Shown here: one piece after another, positions 16,752-55,000 of the stretch
How positions within the stretch are numbered: the stretch's first letter is position 1
Layout of the letters: each line of letters opens with the position of its first letter
NCBI GenBank assembly: GCA_963737655.1
Contig: CAVTTN010000002.1
Coordinates: forward strand, 1,632,001 to 1,696,000
Length of the DNA: 64,000 nt
Source: an uncultured Planctomycetota bacterium
GTDB taxonomy: Bacteria > Planctomycetota > Planctomycetia > Isosphaerales > Isosphaeraceae
Direction: 5' to 3'
Notes under the pieces: generated by a model
What the model saw: only the letters and a program-made list of their open reading frames with translations
Told to the model about the DNA's origin: nothing
Databases searched by the model: none
Made by a program: the position numbers and the translations under genes

Positions 16752-16885
16752 ATCCCCTTCGGACGCCTACGAGGTTAGCTGACGGGCTCGGAGCCGAAAG
16801 GTTGCCCCGCCGCACCAAAAGGTACGGTTAGCCCCAAAGAGTGGGTCCCCCGCTCTCCTCTTCCGAGGAGACTCGGCGATATCAA
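16752..16885 (-). promoter_or_regulatory. c-di-AMP (ydaO/yuaA-class) riboswitch
   Basis: Minus strand ATCGCCGAGTCTCCTC..GAGGAGAGCGGGGGACCCACTCTTTGGGGCTAA...CCGAGCCCGTCAGCTAACCTCGTAGGC matches the class hallmarks (GGGGGACCC, TTTGGGG, CCCGTCAGCTAAC); upstream of YdaO-like permeases. Confidence 0.88.
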
Positions 16886-37884: not shown

Positions 37885-38017
37885 AGGGGCGCCCTGGCGG
37901 ATTCGAAGGGCCGAGGCGAACCTTCGGGCCTCGGGCCGCGTACTGGAGAAATCGCGGACGTCCGCTCCGCGCGCCCACGCCCCTGACCCCCCGATCGGCC
38001 GATCCCAGGAGCCTCCC

Positions 38018-39745
38018 GTGACTCGGCGACTCCGCCCCTTCCCCGGCGTCCTGCTCGCCCCGGCCGCGGCGCTGGCCCTGATGGCCTCCGGGTGCTCGGA
38101 CTTCTCCTCGCCTCCGCCGCCGGTCGCCCCGGGGTCGTCCCCCGGTTCGATCTCGGGCGCCGTCGGCGACGGCTCCTCGGGCCTCGACCCGGAGGGGCGG
38201 AAGACGATCATCGACAACGTCTTGAAGCTGATCCGCGACGCCGCGACCAACGCCGGCGGCCACAACTTCGACATCGCCACCGAGAACCTCAACGACTACT
38301 TCGCCCCCGAATCGGCCGACCGCTTCGCCATCCCCGAGGCCACCCTCGCCTATCTGAAGACCCAGAAGCTCCCGCCCGACACGATCCAGGCCGTCGCCGA
38401 CCGCCGGTTCCAGAAGAACGACGGCCGACACATCGAGGACAACGACGTCTACCACGCCATCGCCTCCCGGGTGGCCGGCGAGAGGCTCGCGGGCGAGGCC
38501 GACGACCTGCCTCGGGTCCGCCGCCTGTTCGACTGGACCGTCCGCCACGCCATGCTGGTCCCCTCGGGCTCCCTGGTCCCCTCCGGGATGCCCCAGGCCC
38601 AGGCCCGGCCATATGACGTGTTGCTCCGCGGGATGGCCACCGAGGATCGCGGCGATTGGTCCGAACGCGGCTGGCTGTTCCTGACCCTCTGCCGGCAGAT
38701 CGGCATCGACGCCGGGATGATCGCCTACACCATCCCGATCCGACCTCACGGCCCCCTGGCGAAGTACGGGACCAGGCAGTTGACCGACCGCCTCCAGGCC
38801 CTGGCCGGCACCGGGGTCCGCGACCCCATGCCCTGGGCCTGCGGCGTCCTGATCGACGGCAAGGTCTACCTGTTCGACCCCCGGCTCGGCGTGGAAATCC
38901 CCTCCGCCGACGGCCGATCGGTGGCGACCCTCGAAGACGCGGCCACCGATCCGACCGTCCTGGCCCGGCTGGACCTGCCCGGCCGAGGCTACGAACCCAC
39001 CCGGATCGACCTGGCGAGCCGGCCGGTCCACGTCCTCCTGGAATCCAGCCTCGGCAGCCTCTCCCCCCGGATGAAGCTCCTCCAGGAGGCCCTGACCGGC
39101 AAGAACCGGATGAGCCTCTACCGCGACCCGGTCGAGCAGGCCGAGGCGTTCCGCAAGGCCCTGGGCCCTCGATGCGCCGGGGTGGACCTCTGGTCCCTGC
39201 CCCTGACCGTCGAGTACCTCCTGTTCCACGACGGCAACTTCACCGCCGCCACGCTCTACCCCCTCCAGTTCTTCGAGTCCCGATGGCCCCTGCTCTCGGC
39301 GAGGCTGACGCAGCTCCGCGGCGACCTGCCCGGCGCGATCCTCAAGTACGTCTCCTTCCGGTTCTCCGACGACACCTACGAGGCCGACGGCCGGACGAGG
39401 GTCCCGCAGAACGTCCAGCACGTCCTGGACATGTTCGCCACCTATTACCTCGCCCTCGGCCAGCTCGACAAGGGGGACCGCAAGCAGGCGGAATTCCTCT
39501 TCCGGGAGACCAGGCGGCTCCTGCCCGAGCCCGTCCGGGGCCAGCCCTTCACCATGTTCGGCTGGGGGGCCGAGACCAACCTCGGCCTGATCTGCCTCGA
39601 CGCCGGCCGGACGGCCGAGGCCATCCACTTCCTGACCATCGAACAGCCCACGGCCCAGGCCCACGGCAACCTCGTCCGGGCCCGAGAGCTGATCTGGCAA
39701 GACCCCTTCGCCACCACCCCAAGCCAGGCCCAGACCGGCCGATAA
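38018..39745 (+). CDS. Hypothetical lipoprotein, possibly transglutaminase-like plus TPR
   Basis: ASGC lipobox-like motif; LFLTLCRQIGIDA and WACGVLIDGKVYLFDP; helical C-terminus. Confidence 0.6.
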   Translation: MTRRLRPFPGVLLAPAAALALMASGCSDFSSPPPPVAPGSSPGSISGAVGDGSSGLDPEGRKTIIDNVLKLIRDAATNAGGHNFDIATENLNDYFAPESADRFAIPEATLAYLKTQKLPPDTIQAVADRRFQKNDGRHIEDNDVYHAIASRVAGERLAGEADDLPRVRRLFDWTVRHAMLVPSGSLVPSGMPQAQARPYDVLLRGMATEDRGDWSERGWLFLTLCRQIGIDAGMIAYTIPIRPHGPLAKYGTRQLTDRLQALAGTGVRDPMPWACGVLIDGKVYLFDPRLGVEIPSADGRSVATLEDAATDPTVLARLDLPGRGYEPTRIDLASRPVHVLLESSLGSLSPRMKLLQEALTGKNRMSLYRDPVEQAEAFRKALGPRCAGVDLWSLPLTVEYLLFHDGNFTAATLYPLQFFESRWPLLSARLTQLRGDLPGAILKYVSFRFSDDTYEADGRTRVPQNVQHVLDMFATYYLALGQLDKGDRKQAEFLFRETRRLLPEPVRGQPFTMFGWGAETNLGLICLDAGRTAEAIHFLTIEQPTAQAHGNLVRARELIWQDPFATTPSQAQTGR

Positions 39746-40666
39746 GCCGCCGAAATCCTCGCGGATCGGACGCGTTCAGCCCGTCGAATCGCGGTCCCTG
39801 TCGGGTCCGCTCTTGCGGACCTCTTCGATCTCGCATCATCGCGAAGAGGTCGACAAAATCCGCGATCCGACCCGCTCAACAGGAACCTCGGACCTTCGGC
39901 GGGCGGCACGGGTCGAACCCGACCCAGGGCACCCGGCGCGAGGAGTCGGAACGGACCGACCCGACCAACCCCCGACCCGGCCAGGACCGTTCGAGCCGAG
40001 GGCCTCGCCTCGCGACGAACCCCGGACACCGACCGACCCTCGGCCCATCGCCGTCCGAACCCATCCCCGGCCCTCACGTCCCACCCCCGATCCCACGAAT
40101 CAAGATCCCGACCCCCACGTCCATCCTCGCCAATCCCTCCGAACCAAACCATCGAGACCGCACCCCACCCCCGATCACCCAATCCCGCCACCACACCCGA
40201 CCAACCTCCCGAACGCCCCCTCACGCCCCACCCCAAACGGTCCACCCATTCCGACGAAAACCGGCGACGATTCCCCAAAAATTCACTCGACACAAGCCGT
40301 TCCAGCATCCAGCTTTGCCGGTCAAAACCAAACGAATTCTCGGATCGGAACTCCTGCCCTGGCAACAGTGACTGCGCGCCAGAAAACCCTGGAAAAACCG
40401 CCCTCCGGCGCAGTTTTTCGGGAAAAAGTGTCGTCAAGTTCCTCCAAATCAACGGTCATGCACCTCTAGCCTCGAGAAAAGTTGAGCAATCCAAGAAATG
40501 AGTAGAATCCAAATCAATAAATCGCAAAACATCGGCAAAATGGACGCTCGCCAGCCCGCAAACCCGACCCCACCCGCTCCTCCCCGGCGGATTTCCCGGA
40601 AGCCCCAGACCCCCCAGGATCGCAAGCCCCGGGAACCGTCGAGTGAGCCCTCAGAAATCAAAATTT

Positions 40667-40752
40667 GGGTGACATGCTCACGTCTTCGTAAGAGTGGATT
40701 CGGCCGGGTTCGAATAGAAGACATGCCTACGAAGACGTGAGCATGCCATCCG
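40667..40752. repeat. Degenerate copy of the CATGCTTACG REP-like pair
   Basis: GGGTGACATGCTCACGTCTTCGTAAG ... CATGCCTACGAAGACGTGAGCATGCCATCCG. Confidence 0.6.
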
Positions 40753-40819
40753 ACCAAAGAAAATCCTTGCAAGGCGAACTCGCCGTCGGCAAAATCAACA
40801 ACCGGCCCGAGATTATCCA

Positions 40820-40913
40820 TCCGAAACGACGTGATAAATCACGTCGTTTCGGACGCATAATCCCGCAAATTCGGGGATTCTGCGTCACTTTCGATGTCTA
40901 CTTCATGTTAGGC
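40820..40913 (+). other. Head of cassette array: perfect 16-bp palindrome and attI-like GTTAGGC site
   Basis: TCCGAAACGACGTGAT-AA-ATCACGTCGTTTCGGA (40820-40853); GTTAGGC at 40907 with no attC arm before it. Confidence 0.5.
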
Positions 40914-41104
40914 GGCTCGGCAACCGGTCGAGCCGGGGAGGGGGATGCGATGCCCGTTCGGCCGTTCGCGCCTCGTCGCCGTGCCGGTCGTCGCGTCGCC
41001 GTGCCGGTCGTCGCGTCGCCGTCGGCCGCGCCCCGCGTCGTCGCCGCCCGGGGTGGCGCGCGTGGTCGCCGCCGGCGGTCGTGCCCCGCGCGGTCGCGCC
41101 GCCT

Positions 41105-41484
41105 CTTCGTGAACTCTTTGGCTGGGAACGGCCATCGACGCGCGACACTACCCCAACCCCAGGCTTTGTGGCCGGGCAGCGGCGAGGTCCGGGTAGCAAA
41201 CCGACGGATTCAAGAGCGGCGGACGAGGCGCGGGCCGAGAGGGGAGTCGGTTACGCTTGCAGTCTCTTCGACGGGAACATCCCCGCGAGTCGGCTCGCGG
41301 GGCGTCGCCAATGACCGGATCACGACCTCTCGGGCCAGGCTAACCTACGGGCAGGGAGCACCAAGGTGGAGACGGCCGGGAGGCCCGCGCCACACTCAGG
41401 CTACGCCGCGCCGGGTCGGCGGGCAAGTCGTCCCCGACCCCCGTTCACGCCCCGTCGGGAGCGGACGAAGGCCGCAGGATGGTT
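41105..41484 (-). mobile_element. 380-bp non-autonomous IS110-related element, copy 1, in attC inverse core
   Basis: CTTCGTGAAC...GCAGGATGGTT inserted in GCCT^AAC; ~260 bp similar to the IS110 non-coding end. Confidence 0.85.
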
Positions 41485-41573
41485 AACCTCGCGCTGCAGC
41501 GGACCCCACCCGCCGCATCGGTTTCTGGTAGATTCAAGGTCGCTCGTGCGGGTGGGTCCGCTGAGCTTGGCCG

Positions 41574-42565
41574 TTAGGCGGCTCAGGAGTCGAAGCCTTC
41601 GGTCGTGCTCGTCGTCGGCCTCGCCGGTCGCGCCTCGGCTCGACGACGCCATCGGTCGGGCCCCTGGAGTCGGCCTCGGCGGTGGTGCGCGTCGTCGCCC
41701 TCGCCGGCCGCGCCCCCGAGGTCGGGCCCGTCGGCCGGCGCCCCCTTGCCAACGCCGTCGGTCCGTGCCAGGATCGTCGGTGTCGGCGCGTGGGGCGTCG
41801 CCGGGCGCCGCCTAACCCGGCGCTGCAGCGGACCCGGCCCGCGGTCGACGATCACTCTCCTCTCAATCTCGCCGGGCGCGGGCCGGTCCGCTGAGCTTTG
41901 TCGTTAGGCGGCTCAGGAGTCGAAGCCTTCGGTCGTGCTCGTCGTCGGCCTCGCCGGTCGCGCCTCGGCTCGACGACGCCATCGGTCGGGCCCCTGGAGT
42001 CGGCCTCGGCGGTGGTGCGCGTCGTCGCCCTCGCCGGCCGCGCCCCCGAGGTCGGGCCCGTCGGCCGGCGCCCCCTTGCCAACGCCGTCGGTCCGTGCCA
42101 GGATCGTCGGTGTCGGCGCGTGGGGCGTCGCCGGGGCGCCGCCTAACCCGGCGCTGCAGCGGACCCGGCCCGCGGTCGACGATCACTCTCCTCTCAATCT
42201 CGCCGGGCGCGGGCCGGTCCGCTGAGCTTTGTCGTTAGGCGGCTCAGGAGTCGAAGCCTTCGGTCGTGCTCGTCGTCGGCCTCGCCGGTCGTGCCTCGGC
42301 TCGACGACGCCATCGGTCGGGCCCCTGGAGTCGGCCTCGGCGGTGGTGCGCGTCGTCGCCCTCGCCGGCCGCGCCCCCGAGGTCGGGCCCGTCGGCCGGC
42401 GCCCCCTTGCCAACGCCGTCGGTCCGTGCCAGGATCGTCGGTGTCGGCGCGTGGGGCGTCGCCGGGGCGCCGCCTAACCCGGCGCTGCAGCGGACCCGGC
42501 CCGCGGTCGACGATCACTCTCCTCTCAATCTCGCCGGGCGCGGGCCGGTCCGCTGAGCTTTGTCG
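41574..42565 (+). repeat. Three tandem copies of a 330-331-bp cassette with no convincing ORF
   Basis: Units 41574-41903, 41904-42234 and 42235-42565 differ by 1-2 bases. Confidence 0.93.
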
Positions 42566-42580
42566 TTAGGCGGCTAGGAG

Positions 42581-43543
42581 ATGACGTCGCCGGAAGCACG
42601 CACAATCCGACGACCCTTTCGATGGAACGGCCGATCTCGCGGCGGGGCGTTTATGGCTTTCCTGCGGATGTCGGTCCTCGGCCTCACAGGCGTCATCGCA
42701 ATGGTCGCCCTCGCATTGGCGTCTCTTCGCTACTCGACGCCGAACGTGGCGCGATGGAGCCTGACGGCGGTCTTCCTGATCCACGGGCTCGCGATCCTCG
42801 CCGCGATCTATCGACGTGGGGCGACTCGCGCCTTCTGGCTGGGCTTTGCCCTGATGGGCGGGGGCTATCTGGGCCTCTCCTCCGGCTCGTGGACGCTCAC
42901 CCAAAAGGAAGATGACTTGTACAAGAATGGATTCTTCGTGGATTTCGCCGGCGTTCACGGCGCGGTGCGTGAACCGGCCCCGCTCGGACACTGGCTAGGT
43001 ACAACGGCCCTCCTCGACTCGCTACGCATCGGGATTCAGATCGACAACGGCACCGGCTCGCCCCCGAACAGGCTGGAAGGATTGTTCGACTTCGATCGCA
43101 GGAGAAGTGCCATGCTCGCCGCGTTAGACCGGCCGCTTGAGATGCCGTTTCCACGAGAAACTCCGCTCGATGACGTGCTGAATTACATCAAGGTCTCGAC
43201 TCGCACCGCGGCCCTGCCGGACGGGATCCCGATCTACGTCGATCCGATCGGGCTGGTGGAGGCGGAGAAGACGATGTCGTCGGGCGTGAGCCTGGAAGTG
43301 AAGGGCATCCCGCTTCGGAGGTCACTGCCCCTGATCCTCGGGCAGGTCGATCTGGCGTGCGTCGTTGATGCCGATCTTGTGACGATCACCAGCCGTACCC
43401 GCGCCTCGGTGACGGACCGCGTCGAGGCGTTTCGCCGCATCGGGCACAGCCTATTCGCCTTGATATTCGCCGTCATCGGCGGGGTTGCTGCTTGTACCCT
43501 AAGGACGAAGCCTGAAAGATCCACCCACGCCGCCTCCCCGTGA
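42581..43543 (+). CDS. Cassette membrane protein with STN-like domain
   Basis: AGGAG RBS; TM helices; LDRPLEMPFPRETPLDDVLNYIK...IPIYVDPIGL...GIPLRRSL; stop codon lies inside the IS end. Confidence 0.7.
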   Translation: MTSPEARTIRRPFRWNGRSRGGAFMAFLRMSVLGLTGVIAMVALALASLRYSTPNVARWSLTAVFLIHGLAILAAIYRRGATRAFWLGFALMGGGYLGLSSGSWTLTQKEDDLYKNGFFVDFAGVHGAVREPAPLGHWLGTTALLDSLRIGIQIDNGTGSPPNRLEGLFDFDRRRSAMLAALDRPLEMPFPRETPLDDVLNYIKVSTRTAALPDGIPIYVDPIGLVEAEKTMSSGVSLEVKGIPLRRSLPLILGQVDLACVVDADLVTITSRTRASVTDRVEAFRRIGHSLFALIFAVIGGVAACTLRTKPERSTHAASP

Positions 43544-43695
43544 ACTCTTCGCGCCGGCGGTTCGGCATCGGTTGATACTATGTGGGCGTGATCATCGATC
43601 GGCCCGCATCCCCCCCGGCCCCCGCGACGACGGGGACGGCCCGATCCGGCTCGGCGGGGCTTGCGGCCGGGCGCCCCGCCTCCGACCCGTCGCCC

Positions 43696-45048
43696 TCACG
43701 ACGGCGGCGACGGCGGCGACTTCGCCACCAGCTCGTAGCCCAGCGACCTCGCCTTGCGCCGCAGCGAACGCTCCTGCTTCCGCCTCACCTCCGCCTCGTA
43801 CTCCGCCAGCGACCTCGACACGTACTCCTCGCCGTGCCTGAGCAGCCGGTACACCAGCCGCGACAGCTTGTGCGCCGTCGCCGTGATCGCCCCGCGGCCG
43901 CCGATCCGGCCCTTGATCCGCCGGTAGAACTGGCCCGTCGCCGTCGCCGTCCGGCCCGCCGCCTGCGCCGCCATCCGCAGCGCCTGACCCACCCGGTTCT
44001 TGCCCTTGCGGGGCGTGCGACGCCGCTCGGTCTTGTTGCTCCGGTCGGTCCGCGGGCAGAGGCCCAGCCAGCTGGCGAAGTGCTTCTCGCTCGGGAACCG
44101 CCCCACGTCGCCGCCGAGCTCCGCCAGGATCACCGTCGCCGTCGTCGCGTCGATCCCCTCGATGGCCGTCAGGTCGACGCCGATCGCCCGGGCCAGCTTG
44201 GCCGGGGCGTCGAACCGCACGTCGTTGGCCTTGCGGCCGCGACGCCGCGGCCTCGGGGCGACCGGCTCGCCCCCGGAGCGGTCGGGCAGGCGGTCCAGCT
44301 CCTCGGCGATCCGGGCGTCGCACTCGTCGACCTGGCGGTGGAGGTACTGGTACAGGTCGGACGCCTGCTTCAGGGCGAACAGGTGCTCGGGCCGCCAGGT
44401 GCCCTCCAGGGCCCGGGCGATCTCCGCCTCGTCCCGGGCGCACCGCTCGTGCCGCAGCGCGGCCAGCCTCGCCGGGTCGCGCTCGCCGGCGAGGATGGCG
44501 GCGATGATCGCCGTGCCGGTGACGCCCGTGATGCTGCTGACGACCTCGGTCAGCTTCACATTCATCTGCTCCAAAGCCTTCTGCATGTGCTGGACGTGGT
44601 GCGAGGCGTACCGCACGAGCATCTGCCGCTGCCGCCAGTAGCCGCGCAGGGCCAGGACGGCCCCGGGCGGGCGGAAGGACGGGCGGAGCAGGCCGCAGGC
44701 GTGGAGGCGCTGGAGCCACTGGCAGTCGAGCCGGTCGGTCTTGGGCCGGGCGCCGCAGTGGCTGGCCTGGCTCGGCTCGATGAGGAAGACCTCGAAGCCG
44801 CGCGATTCGAGCAGCTCGAACAGGGGGATCCAGTAGACGCCGGTGGACTCCAGGACCACCGAGGTGACGCCCTCGGCCCGGAACCAATCGGCCAGGGCGT
44901 GGAGGTCGGCCGAGCAGGCGCCGAAGGTGCGGACCCGTCCGGGCCCGACGCAGGCGACGTGGTTGTCGGAGTGGACGTCGACGGCGGCGGCGTGGGGGTG
45001 GACGACCGGCAGGGACGCGTCGGGATCGGGGGGCGTGCGGCGACTCAT
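43696..45048 (-). CDS. IS110-family DEDD transposase/recombinase
   Basis: AAVDVHS, VVLESTGVYW, KTDRLDCQWL, LTAIEGI, RFPSEKHFASWLGLCP...S, AITATAHKL. Confidence 0.95.
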   Translation of the reverse strand: MSRRTPPDPDASLPVVHPHAAAVDVHSDNHVACVGPGRVRTFGACSADLHALADWFRAEGVTSVVLESTGVYWIPLFELLESRGFEVFLIEPSQASHCGARPKTDRLDCQWLQRLHACGLLRPSFRPPGAVLALRGYWRQRQMLVRYASHHVQHMQKALEQMNVKLTEVVSSITGVTGTAIIAAILAGERDPARLAALRHERCARDEAEIARALEGTWRPEHLFALKQASDLYQYLHRQVDECDARIAEELDRLPDRSGGEPVAPRPRRRGRKANDVRFDAPAKLARAIGVDLTAIEGIDATTATVILAELGGDVGRFPSEKHFASWLGLCPRTDRSNKTERRRTPRKGKNRVGQALRMAAQAAGRTATATGQFYRRIKGRIGGRGAITATAHKLSRLVYRLLRHGEEYVSRSLAEYEAEVRRKQERSLRRKARSLGYELVAKSPPSPPS

Positions 45049-45074
45049 GGCGAGGGCTCCGGCGGGTGGGGGGC

Positions 45075-45337
45075 CAAGCCGTCGCGGGCCGAGAGGGGGT
45101 CCGGGGACGAGGTAGTCTCCCCGACGGGAACGTCGCGGGGCCGTGTTGACACGGCGCCGCGGGTCACCAATGATGGGGCCACGGCCTCTCGGGCCATGCT
45201 AACCTGCGGGCGGCGAGCACCAGGGAGATGACGGCCGGGAGGCCCGCGACGGCGTGCCCCAGCGTATCGCGCCCGGTGGTCGGGGCCACCCCCGGTTCAC
45301 GTCCGTCGGGGAGCGGTCGGAGACGGCGCGGAGAGTT
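45075..45337 (-). ncRNA. Candidate bridge/seek-type RNA region in the IS110 upstream non-coding end
   Basis: Long hairpin-rich non-coding end retained in all six related elements; contains CTAACCT (target-like) and GTTCACG (complement of the element end); strand and limits inferred. Confidence 0.55.
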
Positions 45338-45447
45338 AACCTCGCGCTGCAGCGGACCCCGGCCACGGGCCGCGCTTTCTCCGTTGTCATAGCTCACTGG
45401 TCCGTGGCCGGGTCCGCTGAGCTTGGTCGTTAGGCGGCTCGGTGGCG

Positions 45448-45717
45448 ATGCCTGAAGTACCGCTCGCTCACCTCGTATTCCTGCGGCGTGGCTCCGTACT
45501 CATCGTCAAGCGGCCCGAGGTCGACTGGCGGCAACTCCAAGACGAATACGACGACTACATGGCGTCGCTCGGCCCTTGGTCGGAGGACGACATCTGCGAG
45601 CACTTCGCGCTTGACTACGGGGAGGACGATCGCCGCTGGCCGTTCACGCGGTCGGCCATCGGCGAGTTCATGCGCGCGGCTGGCCCGGTCGTGCTGGAGT
45701 CGGCCGCCTCTTCGTGA
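45448..45717 (+). CDS. Cassette hypothetical protein
   Basis: ORF fills the cassette; ends ...ESAA-SS* with the stop inside the inserted element. Confidence 0.7.
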   Translation: MPEVPLAHLVFLRRGSVLIVKRPEVDWRQLQDEYDDYMASLGPWSEDDICEHFALDYGEDDRRWPFTRSAIGEFMRAAGPVVLESAASS

Positions 45718-46089
45718 ACTCTTTGGCTGGGAACGGCCATCGACGCGCAACACTACCCCAACCCCAGGCTTTGTGGCCGGGCAGCGGCGAGGTCCGGGTA
45801 GCAAACCGACGGATTCAAGAGCGGCGGACGAGGCGCGGGCCGAGAGGGGAGTCGGTTACGCTTGCAGTCTCTTCGACGGGAACATCCCCGCGAGTCGGCT
45901 CGCGGGGCGTCGCCAATGACCGGATCACGACCTCTCGGGCCAGGCTAACCTACGGGCAGGGAGCACCAAGGTGGAGACGGCCGGGAGGCCCGCGCCACAC
46001 TCAGGCTACGCCGCGCCGGGTCGGCGGGCAAGTCGTCCCCGACCCCCGTTCACGCCCCGTCGGGAGCGGACGAAGGCCGCAGGATGGTT
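45710..46089 (-). mobile_element. 380-bp non-autonomous element, copy 2
   Basis: One substitution seen versus copy 1; same GCCT^AAC junction. Confidence 0.85.
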
Positions 46090-46211
46090 AACCTTGCGCT
46101 GCAGCGGACCCCACCCGCCGCGACGGTTTTGGTACTATCCGAGGTCGCTCGGGCGGGTGGGTCCGCTGAGCTTTGTCGTTAGGCGGCGGAGATTTTATCG
46201 TGCATCGAGCG

Positions 46212-46820
46212 ATGTTCGTACTCACGGCCCTATTAACCGCCGGGTGCGGACAAGATCTATCTTCGAAGACGCCCCCGATCCTTTCGAAGGCTCTCCCCGA
46301 CTCGGGTCGCCGTGTGATTGATGCCGATCGGGTTGTAAAAGTTGCAGGGCGGACTCTCCCGGATGTTCCCCTCGTCGTGAACGGCGCGACGGGGGAGTCC
46401 GACTCCGCTGGTCATGCACTGTTCACGCTCAAAGGCGGACCGGAGCGAGTTCTGGCATCTGATCCCATCCTCAGCATCGCGCACGTCAAGATCGCGCCGG
46501 ACCGATCCGTCGGGGTCGAGAGCCGGGGAACCACGAGCGGGAATACACCCGACAAGTTCGTCTGGGACGAGCATCGCGATTTCAAGATCAATGGACAGCC
46601 GGCCACTTTGAGCCTTCGTCTGGATGGGCGCAATCATAGCCTACAAGTTGCCGGCGAGACCTTCGATCTCGCCCGAGGTAATTTCTTCACCGTCAGGCTG
46701 GCGGCCGGTTCACGTCTGGTCGCTGAACAGTTTCCACTGATTGATGTCATCGAGGATGATCCGCCCAAAGTTGAAGCCAGATTCACTGGATTCGAGAAAT
46801 CTCGACAAGGTGGTAAGTAG
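46212..46820 (+). CDS. Cassette putative lipoprotein
   Basis: MFVLTALLTAGC lipobox-like motif; lower GC; start may be the GTG at 46200. Confidence 0.7.
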   Translation: MFVLTALLTAGCGQDLSSKTPPILSKALPDSGRRVIDADRVVKVAGRTLPDVPLVVNGATGESDSAGHALFTLKGGPERVLASDPILSIAHVKIAPDRSVGVESRGTTSGNTPDKFVWDEHRDFKINGQPATLSLRLDGRNHSLQVAGETFDLARGNFFTVRLAAGSRLVAEQFPLIDVIEDDPPKVEARFTGFEKSRQGGK

Positions 46821-46865
46821 CTGTGGCCTTGCCTAAGCTTCGGCCGGCGTAGCGGCGAGATGCCT

Positions 46866-47245
46866 CTTCGTGAACTCTTTGGCTGGGAACGGCCATCGAC
46901 GCGCGACACTACCCCAACCCCAGGCTTTGTGGCCGGGCAGCGGCGAGGTCCGGGTAGCAAACCGACGGATTCAAGAGCGGCGGACGAGGCGCGGGCCGAG
47001 AGGGGAGTCGGTTACGTTTGCAGTCTCTTCGACGGGAACATCCCCGCGAGTCGGCTCGCGGGGCGTCGCCAATGACCGGATCACGACCTCTCGGGCCAGG
47101 CTAACCTACGGGCAGGGAGCACCAAGGTGGAGACGGCCGGGAGGCCCGCGCCACACTCAGGCTACGCCGCGCCGGGTCGGCGGGCAAGTCGTCCCCGACC
47201 CCCGTTCACGCCCCGTCGGGAGCGGACGAAGGCCGCAGGATGGTT
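46866..47245 (-). mobile_element. 380-bp non-autonomous element, copy 3
   Basis: One substitution seen versus copy 1; same junction. Confidence 0.85.
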
Positions 47246-47369
47246 AACCTCGCGCTGCAGCGGACCCCGCACCGCCGCGGCGATTCTTGTGTTATCATCG
47301 CGTTCTCGGCGGTGCGGGTCCGCTGAGCTTTGGCGTTAGGCGGCTCGGCGAAGATGCCTCGGGACACCC

Positions 47370-47765
47370 GTGACGTTCGACCCCGACCGAATCATGACCC
47401 TCTCGACCATGCAGTTCCGACGTTTCGGAATCGCGTGCTGCTATCGGTTGGGGTGCGACCGCAAAGACAAGCGTCTCGCGAAGGCGCTCAAGAGACTGGA
47501 GCAATCGCTGGGGCCGCCGGCCGACGAGAGCATGCGTCGTGACGCGCTCAACGCCGCCAACTCCGCTTGCCGAGACCTCTCCGCAAGCAGCGGCGTGATA
47601 CAGGTCGTTGCCCGCACCCTTGTTTGTGCCTGCTGGGACGGTCCCAATGAGAATCTGATTGGGAATTTCGAAGCGGCGCTTGAACAAGGAGAGCACTTGA
47701 GCAGGTCCGAGATCAAGGACATTGAAAGCGAGATCTTTCGGGCTATCCTGGGCGCCTCTTCGTGA
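47370..47765 (+). CDS. Cassette hypothetical helical protein
   Basis: ORF fills the cassette; ends ...ILGA-SS* with the stop inside the inserted element. Confidence 0.65.
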   Translation: MTFDPDRIMTLSTMQFRRFGIACCYRLGCDRKDKRLAKALKRLEQSLGPPADESMRRDALNAANSACRDLSASSGVIQVVARTLVCACWDGPNENLIGNFEAALEQGEHLSRSEIKDIESEIFRAILGASS

Positions 47766-48137
47766 ACTCTTTGGCTGGGAACGGCCATCGACGCGCGACA
47801 CTACCCCAACCCCAGGCTTTGTGGCCGGGCAGCGGCGAGGTCCGGGTAGCAAACCGACGGATTCAAGAGCGGCGGACGAGGCGCGGGCCGAGAGGGGAGT
47901 CGGTTACGCTTGCAGTCTCTTCGACGGGAACATCCCCGCGAGTCGGCTCGCGGGGCGTCGCCAATGACCGGATCACGACCTCTCGGGCCAGGCTAACCTA
48001 CGGGCAGGGAGCACCAAGGTGGAGACGGCCGGGAGGCCCGCGCCACACTCAGGCTACGCCGCGCCGGGTCGGCGGGCAAGTCGTCCCCGACCCCCGTTCA
48101 CGCCCCGTCGGGAGCGGACGAAGGCCGCAGGATGGTT
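47758..48137 (-). mobile_element. 380-bp non-autonomous element, copy 4
   Basis: Appears identical to copy 1; same junction. Confidence 0.85.
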
Positions 48138-48372
48138 AACCTGGCGCTGCAGCGGACCCGGCCCGCCGCGGTAGTTTCCGTGCTATCATCGGTCTGCTCG
48201 GCGGGCCGGTCCGCTGAGCTTGGTCGTTAGGCGGTTCGGGCACCGTTGGATCGCGCGGCGAAATCCAGAAGTCCCAACGGCAGCCCCTTGTCATCCGCCG
48301 CCGGGATCGATAGGGTCGCCGGCGTCGGTGCCACGCAGCGGAGCGAGGCTTGTCTAATCAGGGGCGTAATCC

Positions 48373-48582
48373 ATGAAAGCCTGGAAGAAAACCTTCCCTT
48401 CGATCGGGTTCGCGATCGCCGCCGTGGCATTCCTATTCGCCGGTTTGGAGGAGCGGGTCATCGCTGGGGGGCGGCTCCGCTACCCCATGCTGAGCTTGGC
48501 ATTCTTGTACTTCGTCTTAGCCTTCGTATTCTTCGACCGAGGCCGGAAGTCAGGTGGCGAGACCGGACCGCCAAATGCCTGA
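48373..48582 (+). CDS. Cassette small two-TM protein
   Basis: AGGGGG RBS-like site; two hydrophobic segments. Confidence 0.6.
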   Translation: MKAWKKTFPSIGFAIAAVAFLFAGLEERVIAGGRLRYPMLSLAFLYFVLAFVFFDRGRKSGGETGPPNA

Positions 48583-48651
48583 CCTGCTGGCTAGCCCGGG
48601 CGATGCGGCGAGGAGGAACGATCGTCAGCGGCATTCAAGGTCTCCCGGCCT

Positions 48652-49647
48652 CCCCGTGAACTCTTCGCGCCGACGGTTCGACATCGGTTGATACTATGTG
48701 GGCGTGATCATCGATCGGGGTCAAAAAGGGGACGGGGGTCAAAAAGGGGACGGGGGTCAAAAAGGGGACGGGGTCAAAAAGGGGACGGAGCGAATAAATT
48801 CAGCTTTTTGCATTTTGCCGCGTCTCATCCAGGCCGAACTTATTCGCTCCGTCCCCTTTTCGGCCCCCGCCGTCCCCTTTTCGGCCCCCGCGTCCCCTTT
48901 TCGGCCCCCGTCCCCTTTTCGGCCCCTCTGCCGCTGCCGCCAGTAGCCGCGCAGGGCCAGGACCGCGGCCGGCGGGCGGAAGGACGGGCGGAGCAGGCCG
49001 CACGAGTGGAGGCGCCGGAGCCACTGGCAGTCGAGCCGGTCGGTCTTGGGCCGGGCGCCGCAGTGGCTGGCCTGGCTCGGCTCGATGAGGAAGACCTCGA
49101 AGCCGCGCGATTCGAGCAGCTCGAACAGGGGGATCCAGTAGACGCCGGTGGACTCCAGGACCACCGAGGTGACGCCCTCGGCCCGGAACCAGTCGGCCAG
49201 GGCGTGGAGGTCGGCCGAGCAGGCGCCGAAGGTGCGGACCCGTCCGGGTCCGACGCAGGCGACGTGGTTGTCGGAGTGGACGTCGACGGCCGCGGCGTGG
49301 GGGTGGATGACCGGCAGGGTCGCGTCGGGATCGGGCGGCTTGCGACGGCTCATCGGGCGGCTCCGGCGGGTTGGGGCGTGGGGGCCGAGCCGCCGCGAGC
49401 CGAGAGGGGGGCCGGGGACGAGCAGTCTCCCCGACGGGAACGTCGCGGCGCCGCGTTGACACGGCGTCGCGGGTCACCAATGATGGGGCCACGGCTTCTC
49501 GGGCCAGGCTAACCTGCGGGCGGCGAGCACCAGGGAAGGGACGGCCGGGAGGCTCGCGACGGCGTGCCCCAGCGTATCGCGCCCGGTGGTCGGGGCCACC
49601 CCCGGTTCACGTCCGTCGGGGAGCGGTCGGAGACGGCGCGGAGAGTT
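48652..49647 (-). mobile_element. Internally deleted IS110 copy in attC inverse core
   Basis: Same ends as 43536-45337; transposase 49353-~48927 breaks after YWRQRQ. Confidence 0.9.
48717..48926. repeat. Palindromic AAAAGGGGAC/GTCCCCTTTT repeat block inside the deleted IS110
   Basis: (GGGGTCAAAAAGGGGAC)x4-GGAGCGAATAA...TTATTCGCTCC-(GTCCCCTTTTCGGCCCC)x4. Confidence 0.9.
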
Positions 49648-49772
49648 AACCTGGCGCGGCAGCGGACCCCGCCCGCCACGACGCCTTCTGGTATCATCAA
49701 GCCTTTCCTCGGCGGGCCGGTCCGCTGAGCTTGGGCGTTAGGCGGCTCGGAGGCGCGTAAGAGGGTCGAAAG

Positions 49773-50135
49773 GTGCCGCGACTCCGATTCACGGTGCGGG
49801 GGATGATGATCACCGTGGCGATCGCGGGGGTAGGCCTCGGCAGCCATCGGATGCACGCGCGTCGGCTCCGTTTCCTGGACCAAGCCCGATCCCATGCGGA
49901 GTCCGAGGCACATTGCGCCTTCATGTGGAGCGAGGTCTCCGCCTACCCGGATTTCCGATGGCCGGGCGACCGGCGACCCCCGAGGCCGCCCGAGAAAGTT
50001 CGCAGCGAGCAAGCGGCCGCGCGATCGTATTATGAGAGGAAGATCGCCCACCACGTCACCATGCGCGCGAAGTACGAGCGCGCCGCCCGCTACCCGTGGC
50101 TCCCCGTCGCGCCCGACTCGCGCGAGCCCAAGTGA
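49773..50135 (+). CDS. Cassette hypothetical protein with N-terminal RFTVRGMMI.VA signal-like motif
   Basis: Follows attC9; ends KYERAARYPWLPVAPD; no attC after it. Confidence 0.65.
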   Translation: MPRLRFTVRGMMITVAIAGVGLGSHRMHARRLRFLDQARSHAESEAHCAFMWSEVSAYPDFRWPGDRRPPRPPEKVRSEQAAARSYYERKIAHHVTMRAKYERAARYPWLPVAPDSREPK

Positions 50136-50148
50136 GGACACGCCATGC

Positions 50149-50650
50149 TGGACTTCCCCGCCGAGGGCGGGCGCCGGGTTACGAGCGTAAGCTCGAACCT
50201 GGAGGCCTTCATGCCGACGATCCGAAGGACGTGCACGCCCGAGTTCAAGGCCGAGGCCGTCAAGCTCGTCACCGAGCAGGGGCGGAGCTTCGTCGAGGTC
50301 TCTCGCGACCTCGACATCGGCGACAGCACGCTGAGGGGCTGGCGGGATGCCATCGCCAAGGACGGCCAGCGGGTCTTCCCGGGGCGGGGCATCCCGCCCG
50401 CCCTGGAGGAGGAACTCCGCCGCCTCCGCGCCGATGTCAAGCGGCTCACGATGGAGCGCGACATCCTGAAAGAAGCGACGGCCTGCTTCGCCGGGGGGTC
50501 GTCATGAGGTACGGCTTCGTCGAGGCCCACCGGGGCGATGGCCGGTCCGGCTCATGTGCCGGGTCCCGCGCGTCTCCCCGGGCGGCTACTACGACTGGCG
50601 GGGAAGGCCGAAGAGGGAAGGGGCACGGAGGCGCGACGACCTGGTCGTCG
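50149..50650 (+). mobile_element. Truncated IS3-family element (orfA 50211-50507 and start of orfB)
   Basis: TGGACTTCCCC end; TPEFKAEAVKLV...LTMERDILKEA; MRYGFVEAHR, MCRV.RVSPGGYYDW. Confidence 0.85.
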
Positions 50651-51604
50651 CCCAAACGCTCCGGGGCGGCGAGACGATCACGTCCCAGTCGTCCGCGAAG
50701 CACCTGCCCAGCCGGTTCCGCGTGACGGCCCAGCAGGGCGCCAGCAACCGGATGCCGAGCTACCGGCTCGAACCCGAGGACGCCCCGACGGCACGACAGA
50801 CCCCGCTCCGTCGGCTCGAAGGACCGACGACGTCTCCGGGGACCAGGGCCGAGGCGGCGCCCGTCCCACCGGCCTCACCGCAGAAGGCTCCGGCCTGGCC
50901 GGAGAGCTTCCTCGCCGAGGCCCAGGCCCTGGCCCGCGACCTGGCGAGCGACCGGCCCGGCCGCCACGGCCTCCAGTTCGTCGTCGAGGAGCTCCAGGAG
51001 GTCGTCAACGACCGGCCCGACGACCTGCTGACGATCCTCCTGGCCGGGTACGTGGCCTCGGTGAAACTCGCCTGCGCGAGCGAACCCGATCGGGCCTACC
51101 GCGGCCACTTCGACGACCTGGCGCGGAAGGCCCTCGACCCGACCCTCCAGAACGTGGCGACGACCGCCCGACCCGGGGGCCTCGGCTCGCTCCTGGGGGC
51201 CGTCACCCGCTGACTCGGCCTCGGCCGCGAGGCCTGACCGGAAGACGAAGCCGTCGCCCGTCCCCACGCCCGACCTCGGCGCGGGCCCTCCCGTCGCACT
51301 CCGCGAGATCGGCCCCTATGGTCCGGCGGGGACGGTCCCCGGCGCCCTGCACGACGATCGTCCCGCCCAGCCGCGGGCGAGCCAGGTCCGCAAGCTCCGC
51401 GCGATCCCGAGGTCGTCAGGGCCTTCCGTCGGACCCCCCTGGAGTTCCTCGCGAACGGGCTTCCTGTCCTCGGCGGACGCGAGTGCGTCCGGAAATCCCG
51501 AACGAGAGGATGTCTTCATGAAGGGAGTCATCGCAAGCCCGAAGGACGGCCCCGCCAACGGGCCGCTGGTCCGAATGGAGCGTCGGGAGCCGGGTGGCGC
51601 GGTC

Positions 51605-54600
51605 GTCTCAATGGGGCCACGGCCTTGGGGCCGTGGATGACGTCAACTTGACGATCTGCTTCAATGGGGCCACGGCCTTGGGGCCGTGGATGACGCGAGT
51701 CAGGCGGTTGAAGTAGCCGGCCGACGATGCGCTTCAATGGGGCCACGGCCTTGGGGCCGTGGATGACTACTCGCCGGAGGGCGCGATGGTGTAGCCGTCC
51801 TCGCTTCAATGGGGCCACGGCCTTGGGGCCGTGGATGACGGGCCGGCGTGGCGTCGATCCGGGCGTGAATCCCCTGGCTTCAATGGGGCCACGGCCTTGG
51901 GGCCGTGGATGACTCCGACGACGACGCGGCGGCGTGGGTCGAGGCCCTGCTTCAATGGGGCCACGGCCTTGGGGCCGTGGATGACAGGATCTGCTGGACG
52001 CCGTGGAGAAGGCGGAGGGGATGCTTCAATGGGGCCACGGCCTTGGGGCCGTGGATGACCAGGTCCTCGACGTGGCCGAGCTGCGGGTCTCCGAGCTTCA
52101 ATGGGGCCACGGCCTTGGGGCCGTGGATGACCCTCCATTGGCCCAAGGGCCGCGGCCCTGAGACCTCGCTTCAATGGGGCCACGGCCTTGGGGCCGTGGA
52201 TGACGTGCCCGAGGTCGATCCGACCGTGGGCGGGCTAGCCGAGCTTCAATGGGGCCACGGCCTTGGGGCCGTGGATGACGGCGTGGGTATTTAGGTGGCC
52301 ATGAATTGGCGAGAAGCTTCAATGGGGCCACGGCCTTGGGGCCGTGGATGACCGCATAAGCCCGCCAGAGGCCGTAATACACGTCATCGCTTCAATGGGG
52401 CCACGGCCTTGGGGCCGTGGATGACGAAGACGATCGCCAAGGGCCGGGGCGTGCATATCAAGCTTCAATGGGGCCACGGCCTTGGGGCCGTGGATGACGT
52501 CAGGACTCCCTGGATCGCCGCCGCGAGCGCCTCGCTTCAATGGGGCCACGGCCTTGGGGCCGTGGATGACGCCTGTCTTGCAGGACCTGCGTGCGTGCAC
52601 GACACGCTTCAATGGGGCCACGGCCTTGGGGCCGTGGATGACTCGGATCGGACGATCGCGACGAGCTGGCGATCGGGACTTCAATGGGGCCACGGCCTTG
52701 GGGCCGTGGATGACGGGACGTAGCCGGTGACGACGTGCATCGACGGCGTGCTTCAATGGGGCCACGGCCTTGGGGCCGTGGATGACTTCCGTTCGCCGCG
52801 TAGAGCGAGCACACCGACTGGTGGCTTCAATGGGGCCACGGCCTTGGGGCCGTGGATGACTCGCCGCCCCGCGGGTCGATGAGGAGGCTGCGGAAGATGC
52901 TTCAATGGGGCCACGGCCTTGGGGCCGTGGATGACACCCTCGGAGTTAACAACGCTCTCAACAGGGGCAACTAGCTTCAATGGGGCCACGGCCTTGGGGC
53001 CGTGGATGACGCCCAGGACGACAAGGGCGTGCTCGTGCGGTTCCTGCTTCAATGGGGCCACGGCCTTGGGGCCGTGGATGACGGCGGCGGTGGCGACCTC
53101 GGCCTGTCTCTCGTCGGGGCTTCAATGGGGCCACGGCCTTGGGGCCGTGGATGACCCGGATGGAGGCGATCGCCGCCAGTGCCAAGGTCGATCGGCTTCA
53201 ATGGGGCCACGGCCTTGGGGCCGTGGATGACGTGTCGGACTCCCGGCCCGAGGCGAAGGGGGCGACGCTTCAATGGGGCCACGGCCTTGGGGCCGTGGAT
53301 GACGAAGCCCTGGTGCATCGCGTCCCGCACCAGCACAACGCGCTTCAATGGGGCCACGGCCTTGGGGCCGTGGATGACATCCTCACGGTGGTCGGCGTCG
53401 GGTTCATGCTCCTGCTTCAATGGGGCCACGGCCTTGGGGCCGTGGATGACGACATCGACAAGCTGCACCGCCTCCGGGGCGTGCTGCTTCAATGGGGCCA
53501 CGGCCTTGGGGCCGTGGATGACCGAACAACGCCCTCGGCAACCTCCGCTGGGACACGCCGCTTCAATGGGGCCACGGCCTTGGGGCCGTGGATGACCCTA
53601 CCAGAAATCCCAGATTGACGTCCGCTACGTCGTGCTTCAATGGGGCCACGGCCTTGGGGCCGTGGATGACGGCCGCCGACCAGGTGCTCTACGGCCCGCT
53701 GGACAAGCTTCAATGGGGCCACGGCCTTGGGGCCGTGGATGACAGGAATCCCCCGGATGGGATGATCGGATAAGCGAAGCTTCAATGGGGCCACGGCCTT
53801 GGGGCCGTGGATGACGCGGCGAGGAAGCCGGGGCCGTGCCGCCGGAGCCAGCTTCAATGGGGCCACGGCCTTGGGGCCGTGGATGACGCCTGGTCGGCCC
53901 GACGGACGGTGACCCGGCCGGAGAGAGCTTCAATGGGGCCACGGCCTTGGGGCCGTGGATGACGACGGCCTCGCCCCGGTGTCGCGGAGGAAGTCGAGGC
54001 TTCAATGGGGCCACGGCCTTGGGGCCGTGGATGACGCCTGCGAGCCGTCGAGCGGGTAATCCCGCGAGCGGCTTCAATGGGGCCACGGCCTTGGGGCCGT
54101 GGATGACCGGGTCCGGGAGCGGATGCAAGCCAACCGGGACCGGCTTCAATGGGGCCACGGCCTTGGGGCCGTGGATGACGCTGGGGGTCAAGTTCACCCG
54201 CCACGCCCCGAACGCGCTTCAATGGGGCCACGGCCTTGGGGCCGTGGATGACCCGTACCGATTGACCGGCCCCTTCTTCGTTATGGCCACGCTCGCCGCT
54301 TCAATGGGGCCACGGCCTTGGGGCCGTGGATGACGTGCTGGCTCGGGCCGATGTCGCCGTAGTTCGACGTGCTTCAATGGGGCCACGGCCTTGGGGCCGT
54401 GGATGACCAAGCAAGCCGAGGCCAATCTGATCGCCCGGGGCGAGCTTCAATGGGGCCACGGCCTTGGGGCCGTGGATGACGGCCGGCAACGCGACGGCGA
54501 GCCTCGGATTTCGCTCGCTTCAATGGGGCCACGGCCTTGGGGCCGTGGATGACCGCCGACCGGGTCGAGGCCTTCGCGGCGACCCTGGCGCTTCAATGGG

Positions 54601-54770
54601 GCCACGGCCTTGGGGCCGTGGATGACGAAGGCTCGGCCGGTCATGATTCGCCCCGGAGCTTGCTTCAATGGGGCCACGGCCTTGGGGCCGTGGATGACCT
54701 CCAATCCGGACTCTCGACGGCCGGGGGGAAGCTGCTTCAATGGGGCCACGGCCTTGGGGCCGTGGAGGAC
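51605..54770 (-). CRISPR. CRISPR array: 44 repeats of 37 bp (GTCATCCACGGCCCCAAGGCCGTGGCCCCATTGAAGC), 43 spacers
   Basis: Repeats counted manually; hairpin CCACGGCC/GGCCGTGG; ATTGAAG 3' end; degenerate terminal repeat and 16-bp spacer at the 51605 end. Confidence 0.98.
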
Positions 54771-55000
54771 TGCTGGCGTCCGAAACACTGCGGGGGTTGA
54801 CCTTTGAGCTCTCTCCGCGAGCGGCTCCGCTTTGGGATCGGTCTTGCAAGTCCGGGCGACTCCGAGCCGATCCGCATGCCCTTCCGGGATCGGGGTTTCC
54901 GGATCGCGAGCGGCCTACTCGCGGAGGTTCGTTCGTAAACCCGAATTGTCAAAGAGATAGGACGCAGGTGAGGCCGAAGGTGCCGATTCACCATCGTCGG
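54771..55000 (-). promoter_or_regulatory. Probable CRISPR leader
   Basis: Non-coding, between csb2 and the array, opposite the degenerate end; CGCGAGCGG occurs twice. Confidence 0.55.

Follow-up and report, generated by a model that had tools for sequence, protein, structure and literature searches.

That an RNA can choose where an insertion sequence (IS) lands is not a new principle, as bridge RNAs and seekRNAs have been known since 2024 and IS1111 elements that target attC sites since 2008. Tetu and Holmes in 2008 and Post and Hall in 2009 are reportedly earlier works on the attC-targeting IS1111 group. Here, we analyze a 64,000-nucleotide stretch of DNA from an uncultured Planctomycetota bacterium of the Isosphaeraceae (assembly GCA_963737655.1, contig CAVTTN010000002.1, positions 1,632,001 to 1,696,000 of the forward strand; the whole stretch is called the window below), in which six of the nine attC sites of an array are interrupted by six related elements. 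We consider it highly probable that these are IS110-family elements guided by a bridge RNA to the R'' arm of attC, that the donor guide of that RNA is CGGGGAG or CGAAGAG, and that a further motif, GTTCACG, belongs to an inverted repeat. 

The closest described systems resemble the window elements in different ways. IS621 and the IS110 group (PMC11208160, PMC11208158) likewise combine a recombinase of DEDD and Tnp domains with an RNA of about 176 to 177 nucleotides (nt) encoded in a long left end upstream of the gene. As in the elements studied here, the IS621 RNA presents the target loop first and the donor loop second, its guides carry the left target plus core and the left donor plus core, the core base is repeated at both junctions, and the target varies more than the donor. 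The IS1111-attC group (ISKpn4, ISPst6, and ISPa25; PMC11187229) is likewise made up of DEDD elements guided by RNA, which enter attC at one of its ends and in a single orientation, and it has subterminal inverted repeats and the order of guide strands that is suggested here. ISPpu10 is an IS110 element with a target in a hairpin-forming repeat and a left guide in which distal mismatches are tolerated (bioRxiv 10.64898/2026.03.19.712850). Finally, MITEPpu9 of ISPpu9 resembles the shortest elements of the window in being small and recombinase-less, with IS110-family-like ends and an AG conserved on both sides, and it is thought to move with transposase supplied in trans (PMC12288879).

The array and the elements within it are as follows, in window positions.

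About 40.9 to 49.8 kb: integron-type attC array.
43535 to 45337, minus strand: full IS110-family element, its junctions compared with empty attC sites.
43696 to 45048, minus strand: recombinase gene of 450 amino acids (aa), with Pfam domains DEDD_Tnp_IS110 and Transposase_20.
48651 to 49647, minus strand: IS copy with an internal deletion; both ends and the RNA region are retained.
41104 to 41484, minus strand: copy 1 of a short recombinase-less element, about 380 bp.
45709 to 46089, 46865 to 47245, and 47757 to 48137: the other copies of the short element, about 380 bp each.
41810 to 41909, plus strand: empty attC with GCCTAACCC; identical copies at 42141 to 42240 and 42472 to 42571.

All six elements enter attC at the same base. 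Each attC of the window begins with GCCTAAC, continues with an imperfect palindrome, and ends in GTTAGGC, a layout that fits inverted R'' and R' cores (RYYYAAC...GTTRRRY), and the bottom strand of an empty site folds into an imperfect hairpin of -41.2 kcal/mol (z = -6.5). With ^ marking the boundary, the junctions of all six elements read ...GCCT^C(TT/CC)CGTGAAC...GT^TAACCT(C/T/G)GCGC, and the target reconstructed from the six occupied sites is GCC-T-AACCT. Every element is flanked left and right by one T, and the point of exchange therefore appears to be a single shared base; in the full element it leaves the boundaries ambiguous by 1 nt, the T/A at 43535 and 45337 being the shared core base. 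The motif CTAACCT occurs on the plus strand once per element (41340, 45199, 45945, 47101, 47993, and 49509) and has one unrelated match at 16772 on the minus strand, which makes 7 matches in the window where 100 shuffles lead one to expect 1.04. At the three empty sites (41810, 42141, and 42472), all copies of one 331-bp cassette, the sequence is GCCTAACCC. An earlier note on this DNA had claimed a CTAACCT in every element, identical occupied targets, and a mismatch at the last position of three empty sites copied from a single cassette, and the motif positions and junctions agree with it on each count.

The full element encodes a recombinase of the IS110 family. Its 450-aa product matches DEDD_Tnp_IS110 (PF01548; 2.6e-17) and Transposase_20 (PF02371; 9.9e-18) and resembles the IS621 recombinase (8wt6) only remotely (E = 5.9e-11). 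The noncoding end upstream of the gene is 288 nt (45049 to 45336) and the downstream end 160 nt (43536 to 43695); because the longer end lies upstream, the arrangement is of IS110 type rather than IS1111 type by the criterion of PMC11187229. We conclude that the element and its copies are an IS110-family insertion sequence with a predicted bridge RNA and that the six repeats are one IS, one deleted copy, and four short relatives. IS-type copies in the genome include three full ones of 1,800 bp and three of 1,782 bp.

The CTAACCT motif lies where such an RNA would read its target. On the minus strand, the motif and its counterparts are as follows.

45199 to 45205, minus strand: predicted left-target guide AGGUUAG, a hypervariable slot in homologues that equals the left-junction flank.
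41340 to 41346, 45945 to 45951, 47101 to 47107, 47993 to 47999, and 49509 to 49515: the same predicted guide in the other five elements.

We compared 79 loci that encode recombinase homologues of 41 to 85% identity. The relatives share an upstream scaffold that reads GGCCG, 9 variable nt, UGGUGC, GCCCG, and any one nucleotide (N), followed by 7 variable nt with AG or AA at their end, then C-N-UGG and a conserved stem, and AGGUUAG (CTAACCT read on the minus strand) occupies the 7-nt hypervariable slot. Forty-two copies had enough upstream sequence for a match to be sought 115 to 165 nt upstream, at the flank junction. The first six nucleotides of the slot recur exactly at the copy's own left junction in 26 of the 42, against 8 of 924 non-self pairings, and with at most one mismatch the figures are 40 of 42 and 126 of 924. 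An exact junction match was found for 16 of 23 distinct guides. Moreover, element boundaries found independently by copy-to-copy BLAST within genomes concur with the junctions between guide-like sequence and flank. In one genome that carries the guide variants CAUUC and CAUUU (L065 to L068, L073, and L120), four of seven copies sit at the corresponding CATTC or CATTT sites and the remaining three are crossed at guide position 5. The slot has the same sequence as the left target and core, so it would base-pair with the other strand of the DNA, which makes it a left-target guide as the term is defined in PMC11208160. We therefore think it very likely, as part of the reading given at the outset, that CTAACCT encodes the left-target guide of a predicted bridge RNA upstream of an IS110-family recombinase.

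The slot belongs to a structured RNA. The predicted core and its parts are as follows.

45078 to 45253, minus strand: predicted bridge-RNA core of about 176 nt, from an alignment of 32 distinct homologues and pair counts.
45243 to 45253 with 45078 to 45088, minus strand: outer stem P1, enclosing both stem-loops.
45232 to 45236 with 45192 to 45196 (P3) and 45217 to 45222 with 45207 to 45211 (P4), minus strand: target-binding stem-loop.
45185 to 45192 with 45089 to 45096 (P2) and 45163 to 45169 with 45125 to 45131 (P5), minus strand: donor-binding stem-loop.
45223 to 45231, minus strand: variable segment of 9 nt on the 5' side of the target loop, UCAUCUCCC, a candidate for the right-target guide plus handshake bases.
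41364 to 41372: the same 9-nt segment in the short copies, UCUCCACCU.

P1 surrounds the P3/P4 stem-loop, which comes first and would bind the target, and then the P2/P5 stem-loop, each with an internal loop. Among the 32 distinct sequences, 75% of cells are paired in P1, 85% in P2 (three to four pair types per position), 97% in P3 (pair 20-67 is GU in 12, GC in 11, AU in 8, and UA in 1), and 100% in P5 (pair 99-143 is AU in 24 and GC in 8), against 22 to 57% in a control with shifted partners. Both guides with top-strand sequence, for target and donor, lie on the 3' side of their respective loops. The 9-nt segment on the other side of the target loop is constant in length and hypervariable across homologues, and in some lineages it is complementary to the right junction (8 of 9 positions in L111, and also in L128, L069, and L139). 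Variants in the attC lineage keep the pattern Y-Y-N-Y / Y-(U/A) / C-C-(C/U), which fits GGG-AG-G(C)GG, the last donor bases, core, and right target, in the way expected of a right guide with handshake bases in the style of IS621. The proposal in the earlier note that CTAACCT is a target-binding segment of a bridge-type RNA is upheld by guide-target covariation across homologous elements, the motif being a hypervariable slot in a two-loop RNA that is itself supported by covariation and tracking the left flank over 23 guides.

The second loop appears to read the element itself. The seven bases after P5 repeat the element's own right end.

45117 to 45123, minus strand: predicted left-donor guide CGGGGAG, identical to the element's own right end plus core (43534 to 43540).
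49427 to 49433: predicted donor guide CGGGGAG of the partial IS.
41264 to 41270, 45869 to 45875, 47025 to 47031, and 47917 to 47923: predicted donor guide CGAAGAG of the short elements; the right end of copy 1 is at 41103 to 41109.

Right ends read ...GTTCA-CGGGG-A^G in the IS and ...GTTCA-CGAAG-A^G in the short elements. The same rule joins guide and end elsewhere, for instance in one genome where L098 has the guide UUAGAAG and the end TTAGAAG and L109 to L111 have the guide UUGGAAG and the end TTGGAAG. By sequence comparison, CGGGGAG or CGAAGAG is the predicted left-donor guide and covaries with the element's own end.

The GTTCACG motif behaves differently from the two predicted guides. It and its reverse complement lie toward opposite ends of the elements.

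45295 to 45301, minus strand: left-end arm (CGUGAAC as RNA) of the predicted subterminal inverted repeat, 36 nt in from the left end.
43539 to 43545, minus strand: right-end arm (GTTCACG in element orientation), which extends over the left donor's first 2 nt.

GTTCACG lies at 45295 to 45301 in the IS, at 41443 to 41449 in short copy 1, and also in the other four elements, and CGTGAAC lies near the start of each (41108, 43539, 45713, 46869, 47761, and 48655), with 23 matches in the window against 7.4 expected. The presence of the motif in every element with its reverse complement at the element's own terminus, which the earlier note had pointed out, is thus borne out by the positions. Across homologues, the inverted repeat is kept at 34 to 46 nt from the left end in 25 of 27 distinct loci, its arms covary (GTTCA/TGAAC, GTTCC/GGAAC, and GTTAC/GTAAC), and the longest arm match averages 6.7 nt in self pairings and 4.0 in non-self pairings. 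The motif is best called an arm of a subterminal inverted repeat rather than a loop guide, and the repeat probably marks the ends for the protein.

If these assignments are correct, a simple course of insertion can be proposed. The left end upstream of the recombinase gene, 288 nt of noncoding DNA, would encode the bridge RNA, with its core running from 45253 to 45078. AGGUUAG would pair with the attC strand opposite the left target in the R'' arm and so direct insertion to the same base, GCC-T-AACCT, and CGGGGAG or CGAAGAG would pair with the donor, that is, the element's own right end plus core. By analogy with the IS621 mechanism, the RNA-bound recombinase would bring a circular donor junction and attC together, and strands would be exchanged at the shared A/T.

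Insertion has been frequent throughout the genome. There are 36 copies, 28 short and 8 IS-type, and all 36 are flanked by ...CCT^C and then TAACCT, the left flank being GCCT in 34, GACT in 1, and TCCT in 1. Thirty-five copies lie on the plus strand like their arrays and one on the minus strand in an inverted array. A first search for attC by regular expression was too permissive (1,630 hits) and was replaced by a hidden Markov model built from 54 sites, which found 83 attC sites with the 5' end present and in arrays, 35 of them occupied and 48 empty. The empty sites include 14 with GCCTAACCT (13 distinct), 13 with GCCTAACCC (4 distinct bodies), 6 with GCCTGACCT, and others. Once duplicate attC bodies were removed and two odd sites set aside, sites that match CTAACCT were occupied in 33 cases and empty in 17, and nonmatching sites were occupied in none and empty in 19 (Fisher P = 2e-7). 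A match is not sufficient for occupancy, since 17 distinct matching sites are empty, 13 of them with the full GCCTAACCT. One further candidate, the site at C2:819744 (GGTTAACAT), was considered as an element end and rejected, as it is not one. At C2:4298601 on the minus strand, an attC is preceded by ...GGACGGAATGGT^TAACCT, which resembles the left end of a short element with a 9-nt deletion and is possibly a relic of one.

Several points weigh against a bridge RNA or against parts of it. The window alone proves little, because its six elements amount to two lineages, about 75% identical here, and hence to two observations rather than six; the decisive evidence is comparative and genome-wide. 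Some junctions among the relatives were located by their likeness to the guide, which is circular, and the non-self control guards against that circularity. P4, although fully paired, is invariant and carries no covariation information, and single-sequence folds of the left ends of the IS and the short element are no better than those of shuffles (z = -1.9 and -1.1). Among the listed sequencing runs that contain some of this sequence, none is of RNA and all cover small fractions of it only. Recognition of two strands, a defining trait of bridge RNAs, is seen for one strand per duplex only: searches for right-target and right-donor guides by 5-mer complementarity, best register, and position matrices gave no consistent family-wide register, the matrix for the 9-nt segment is weak (best register 0.43 against 0.25 to 0.40 for others), and on the donor side no register for a right guide emerged from the matrices. 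One could suppose instead that the protein alone chooses the target and that CTAACCT inside the element, only 7 nt long and sampled in two lineages, is a chance match or a captured copy of the target. We regard this as very improbable, as 23 distinct guides in homologues track their own flanks, the slot has a fixed place within a conserved structured RNA, and bridge and seekRNAs are experimentally established in the superfamily (PMC11208160, PMC11187229). A different assignment within the RNA, made in the earlier note, is that GTTCACG, as CGUGAAC in the transcript, is the donor-binding segment and pairs with the element terminus. The motif is indeed complementary to the subterminal sequence of the right end in all six elements, the complementarity covaries at a fixed distance in 25 of the 27 distinct homologous loci, in some lineages it reaches two nucleotides into the left donor (CG, TT, or TG), and contact of CGUGAAC with a displaced top strand adjoining the donor is possible. 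Yet GTTCACG lies about 45 nt upstream of P1 and the covariation-supported core, outside both loops, has the wrong polarity for a left-donor guide, and is the same in the IS and the short element despite their different donors. The segment that would pair with the bottom strand, matches the terminus, and changes with it is CGGGGAG/CGAAGAG, and in this superfamily subterminal inverted repeats are well known as a feature of the DNA (PMC11208160, PMC11187229). A donor-binding role for GTTCACG is therefore unlikely, and we keep to the inverted repeat.

Whether the last base of the target, T or C, decides which attC sites are occupied is more delicate. T versus C alone, counted over all sites, is 35/0 among occupied sites against 20/13 among empty ones (P = 1.8e-5), and the contrast becomes modest among distinct sites, 33/0 against 19/4 (P = 0.024). 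Distinct sites that carry C or G there number five, and no element occupies any of them, as opposed to 66% occupancy at matching sites (33 of 50); P is about 0.013 when only the four C sites are taken. Moreover, relatives whose guide is GGGUUAG, with a G that compensates for the change, sit at GGGTTA in all three readable cases, from two other genera (four copies were read); for L069 and L196, which have the same guide, the left junction was unreadable, with three mismatches. The guide AGGUUAG has only five non-core bases, so each may weigh more. Against a strict reading of this base, 10 of 43 junctions of relatives have a mismatch at guide position 1, and 10 of 15 single mismatches fall there, more than at any other position. 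Nineteen metagenomic loci carry AGGUUAG, and their 16 readable junctions are AGGTTA in 14 and TGGTTA in 2; the latter are 2 of 7 attC-like metagenomic insertions with this guide, and L061 is likewise at TGGTTA. In ISPpu10, the distal guide position tolerated every substitution (bioRxiv 10.64898/2026.03.19.712850). Perhaps, then, a guide mismatch is not why the TAACCC sites are empty, and the cause is historical or structural, such as a young amplified cassette or other attC features: 10 of the 13 belong to the one 331-bp cassette, which leaves four distinct bodies, and 17 distinct sites that match perfectly are empty too. We put this explanation somewhat short of an even chance, and we lean toward the view that position 1 is read by pairing, though weakly, and that the T/C mismatch is what keeps these sites empty here. 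The idea that this base decides occupancy is plausible, though not conclusively supported, and guide position 1 is the most mismatch-tolerant of the guide.

How the short elements relate to the IS is a further question. They are MITE-like (miniature inverted-repeat transposable element) in that they are without a transposase gene, have partner-like ends, are present in many copies, and share the target, and 25 of the 28 copies, each about 380 bp, agree fully in the features of guide and ends. Simple deletion of the IS does not account for them, because the two have in common only the terminal 15 or so nt of the right end and an RNA region that is 75% identical. The short elements keep all features of the scaffold and the target guide of the IS, and they have a donor guide fitted to their own ends. 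Elements without a recombinase and with a complete predicted bridge RNA also occur in a sister species of the same genus (G073; L197 and L200, 385 bp, in attC) and in another genus (G011; L193 and L194, about 500 bp, guide GGGUUAG, own right end). A search of these two assemblies, which are only 77% and 60% complete, found no close homologue of the recombinase.

With a complete RNA and a donor code of their own, the short elements would have to be given only the recombinase protein in trans. A bridge RNA has been shown to act in trans (PMC11208160), and the IS protein may likewise mobilize the short elements in trans. Recombinase-only elements, the converse natural case, appear in a 2026 preprint. 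We give an even chance to the view that the short copies are self-guided hitchhikers that keep the target guide of the IS, have recoded the donor guide (CGAAGAG) and the ends, and borrow only the recombinase. Were that so, short elements would not compete for or recombine with the ends of the IS, and such RNA-only elements, which outnumber the IS by 28 to 8 here, would account for the majority of attC sites that have been invaded. Taken with the reversed order of the guides and the long, asymmetric repeat, they would form a distinct branch of bridge-RNA systems in which the RNA gene itself is the mobile unit. No description of RNA-only bridge-RNA elements was found in the running text of the literature searched.

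The setting of the array deserves mention. No integrase was found near the window array, and the sole integron integrase of the genome (C2:6777135-6778073) adjoins a different attC array; the window array is for that reason taken to be an attC cluster without an integrase of its own. Each insertion cuts the R'' arm off from the remainder of its attC, and a large part of the cassettes is probably immobilized as a result. The 331-bp cassette with the TAACCC attC (window 41580 to 42575) occurs as three tandem copies in the window and 10 times genome-wide, and no copy has been invaded. In the deleted IS copy, a long near-perfect palindrome of GGGGAC/AAAAG-type repeats lies at 48722 to 48920, where the recombinase gene is missing, and it may be a separate inserted repeat. 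An Rfam scan of 38000 to 51000 found no bridge-RNA family and only chance microRNA-like matches, to this palindrome. About 2 kb past the end of the attC array, from 51700 to 54800, there is a CRISPR array of at least 40 repeats with the unit GCTTCAATGGGGCCACGGCCTTGGGGCCGTGGATGAC and a spacing of 72 to 76 nt.

Some relatives show other combinations of guides and targets. Five metagenomic loci (L144, L147, L150, L153, and L161) have the target guide AGGUUAG and the donor guide UGGGGAG, and this lineage occurs in a repeated AAAGGGGTC^AGGTTA context whose flank is not attC-like. In the genome of the window, near an attC cluster at 4.85 Mb, C2:4847149 carries a second IS110-type scaffold, of the CGAGCCCGC...AGUCUGG class, with the guide GUGUUAG; that scaffold class with the guide GUGUCAG is common in the family. 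At L071 (3000 to 3200), two related IS copies stand head to tail with 4 nt between them (right end-ATGG-CACAT^left end), the target of the second abutting the right end of the first. L135 and L139 (guide UUGUUAG) had been candidates for targeting the R' end of attC and were dropped, as their flank is not attC-like.

How the lineage compares with described systems can now be stated. It differs from IS621 in the layout of the predicted RNA: both guides are on the 3' side of their loops here, whereas in IS621 the 5' side pairs with the bottom strand (PMC11208160, PMC11208158). The guides have 5 nt plus core here and 7 plus 2 in IS621, and a single base (A) is shared at both junctions here, the next base being A on the left and G on the right. 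The target is an arm of attC, unlike the REP (repetitive extragenic palindrome) of IS621, and the inverted repeat is 5 to 9 bp and asymmetric (beside the donor at the right end and 36 nt inside the left), as opposed to 2 to 3 bp flanking the donor in the IS110 group (PMC11208160). ISPpu10 differs in its CT core, its IS621 pairing logic, and its REP target (bioRxiv 10.64898/2026.03.19.712850). With the IS1111-attC group, the lineage shares orientation-specific insertion at a fixed base of attC, seen in all 36 copies, and it lacks the RNA downstream of the gene and the transposase of 330 to 350 aa of that group; its RNA is upstream and its 450-aa recombinase is in the size class of IS110 proper (PMC11187229). 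In IS1111 seekRNAs the top-strand match is 5' of the bottom-strand match, and in the IS110-type ISEc21 the order is the opposite (PMC11187229). The lineage here thus seems to combine an IS110-type RNA location with the other guide order. Finally, MITEPpu9 carries the small RNA gene ssr9 and not a bridge RNA, whereas the short elements here carry a complete predicted bridge RNA with a recoded donor guide (PMC12288879).

What is new, therefore, is not the principle. It is a lineage of IS110 proper, with its predicted RNA upstream, in 36 of about 83 attC sites of a planctomycete integron and its attC clusters, with guides that can be read from natural variation, including the compensating G at the T/C base. 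Its RNA layout appears to be the reverse of the IS621 model, and its recombinase-less copies, with their own predicted RNA and a private donor code, would be a counterpart in nature to the "RNA in trans" design of genome engineering.

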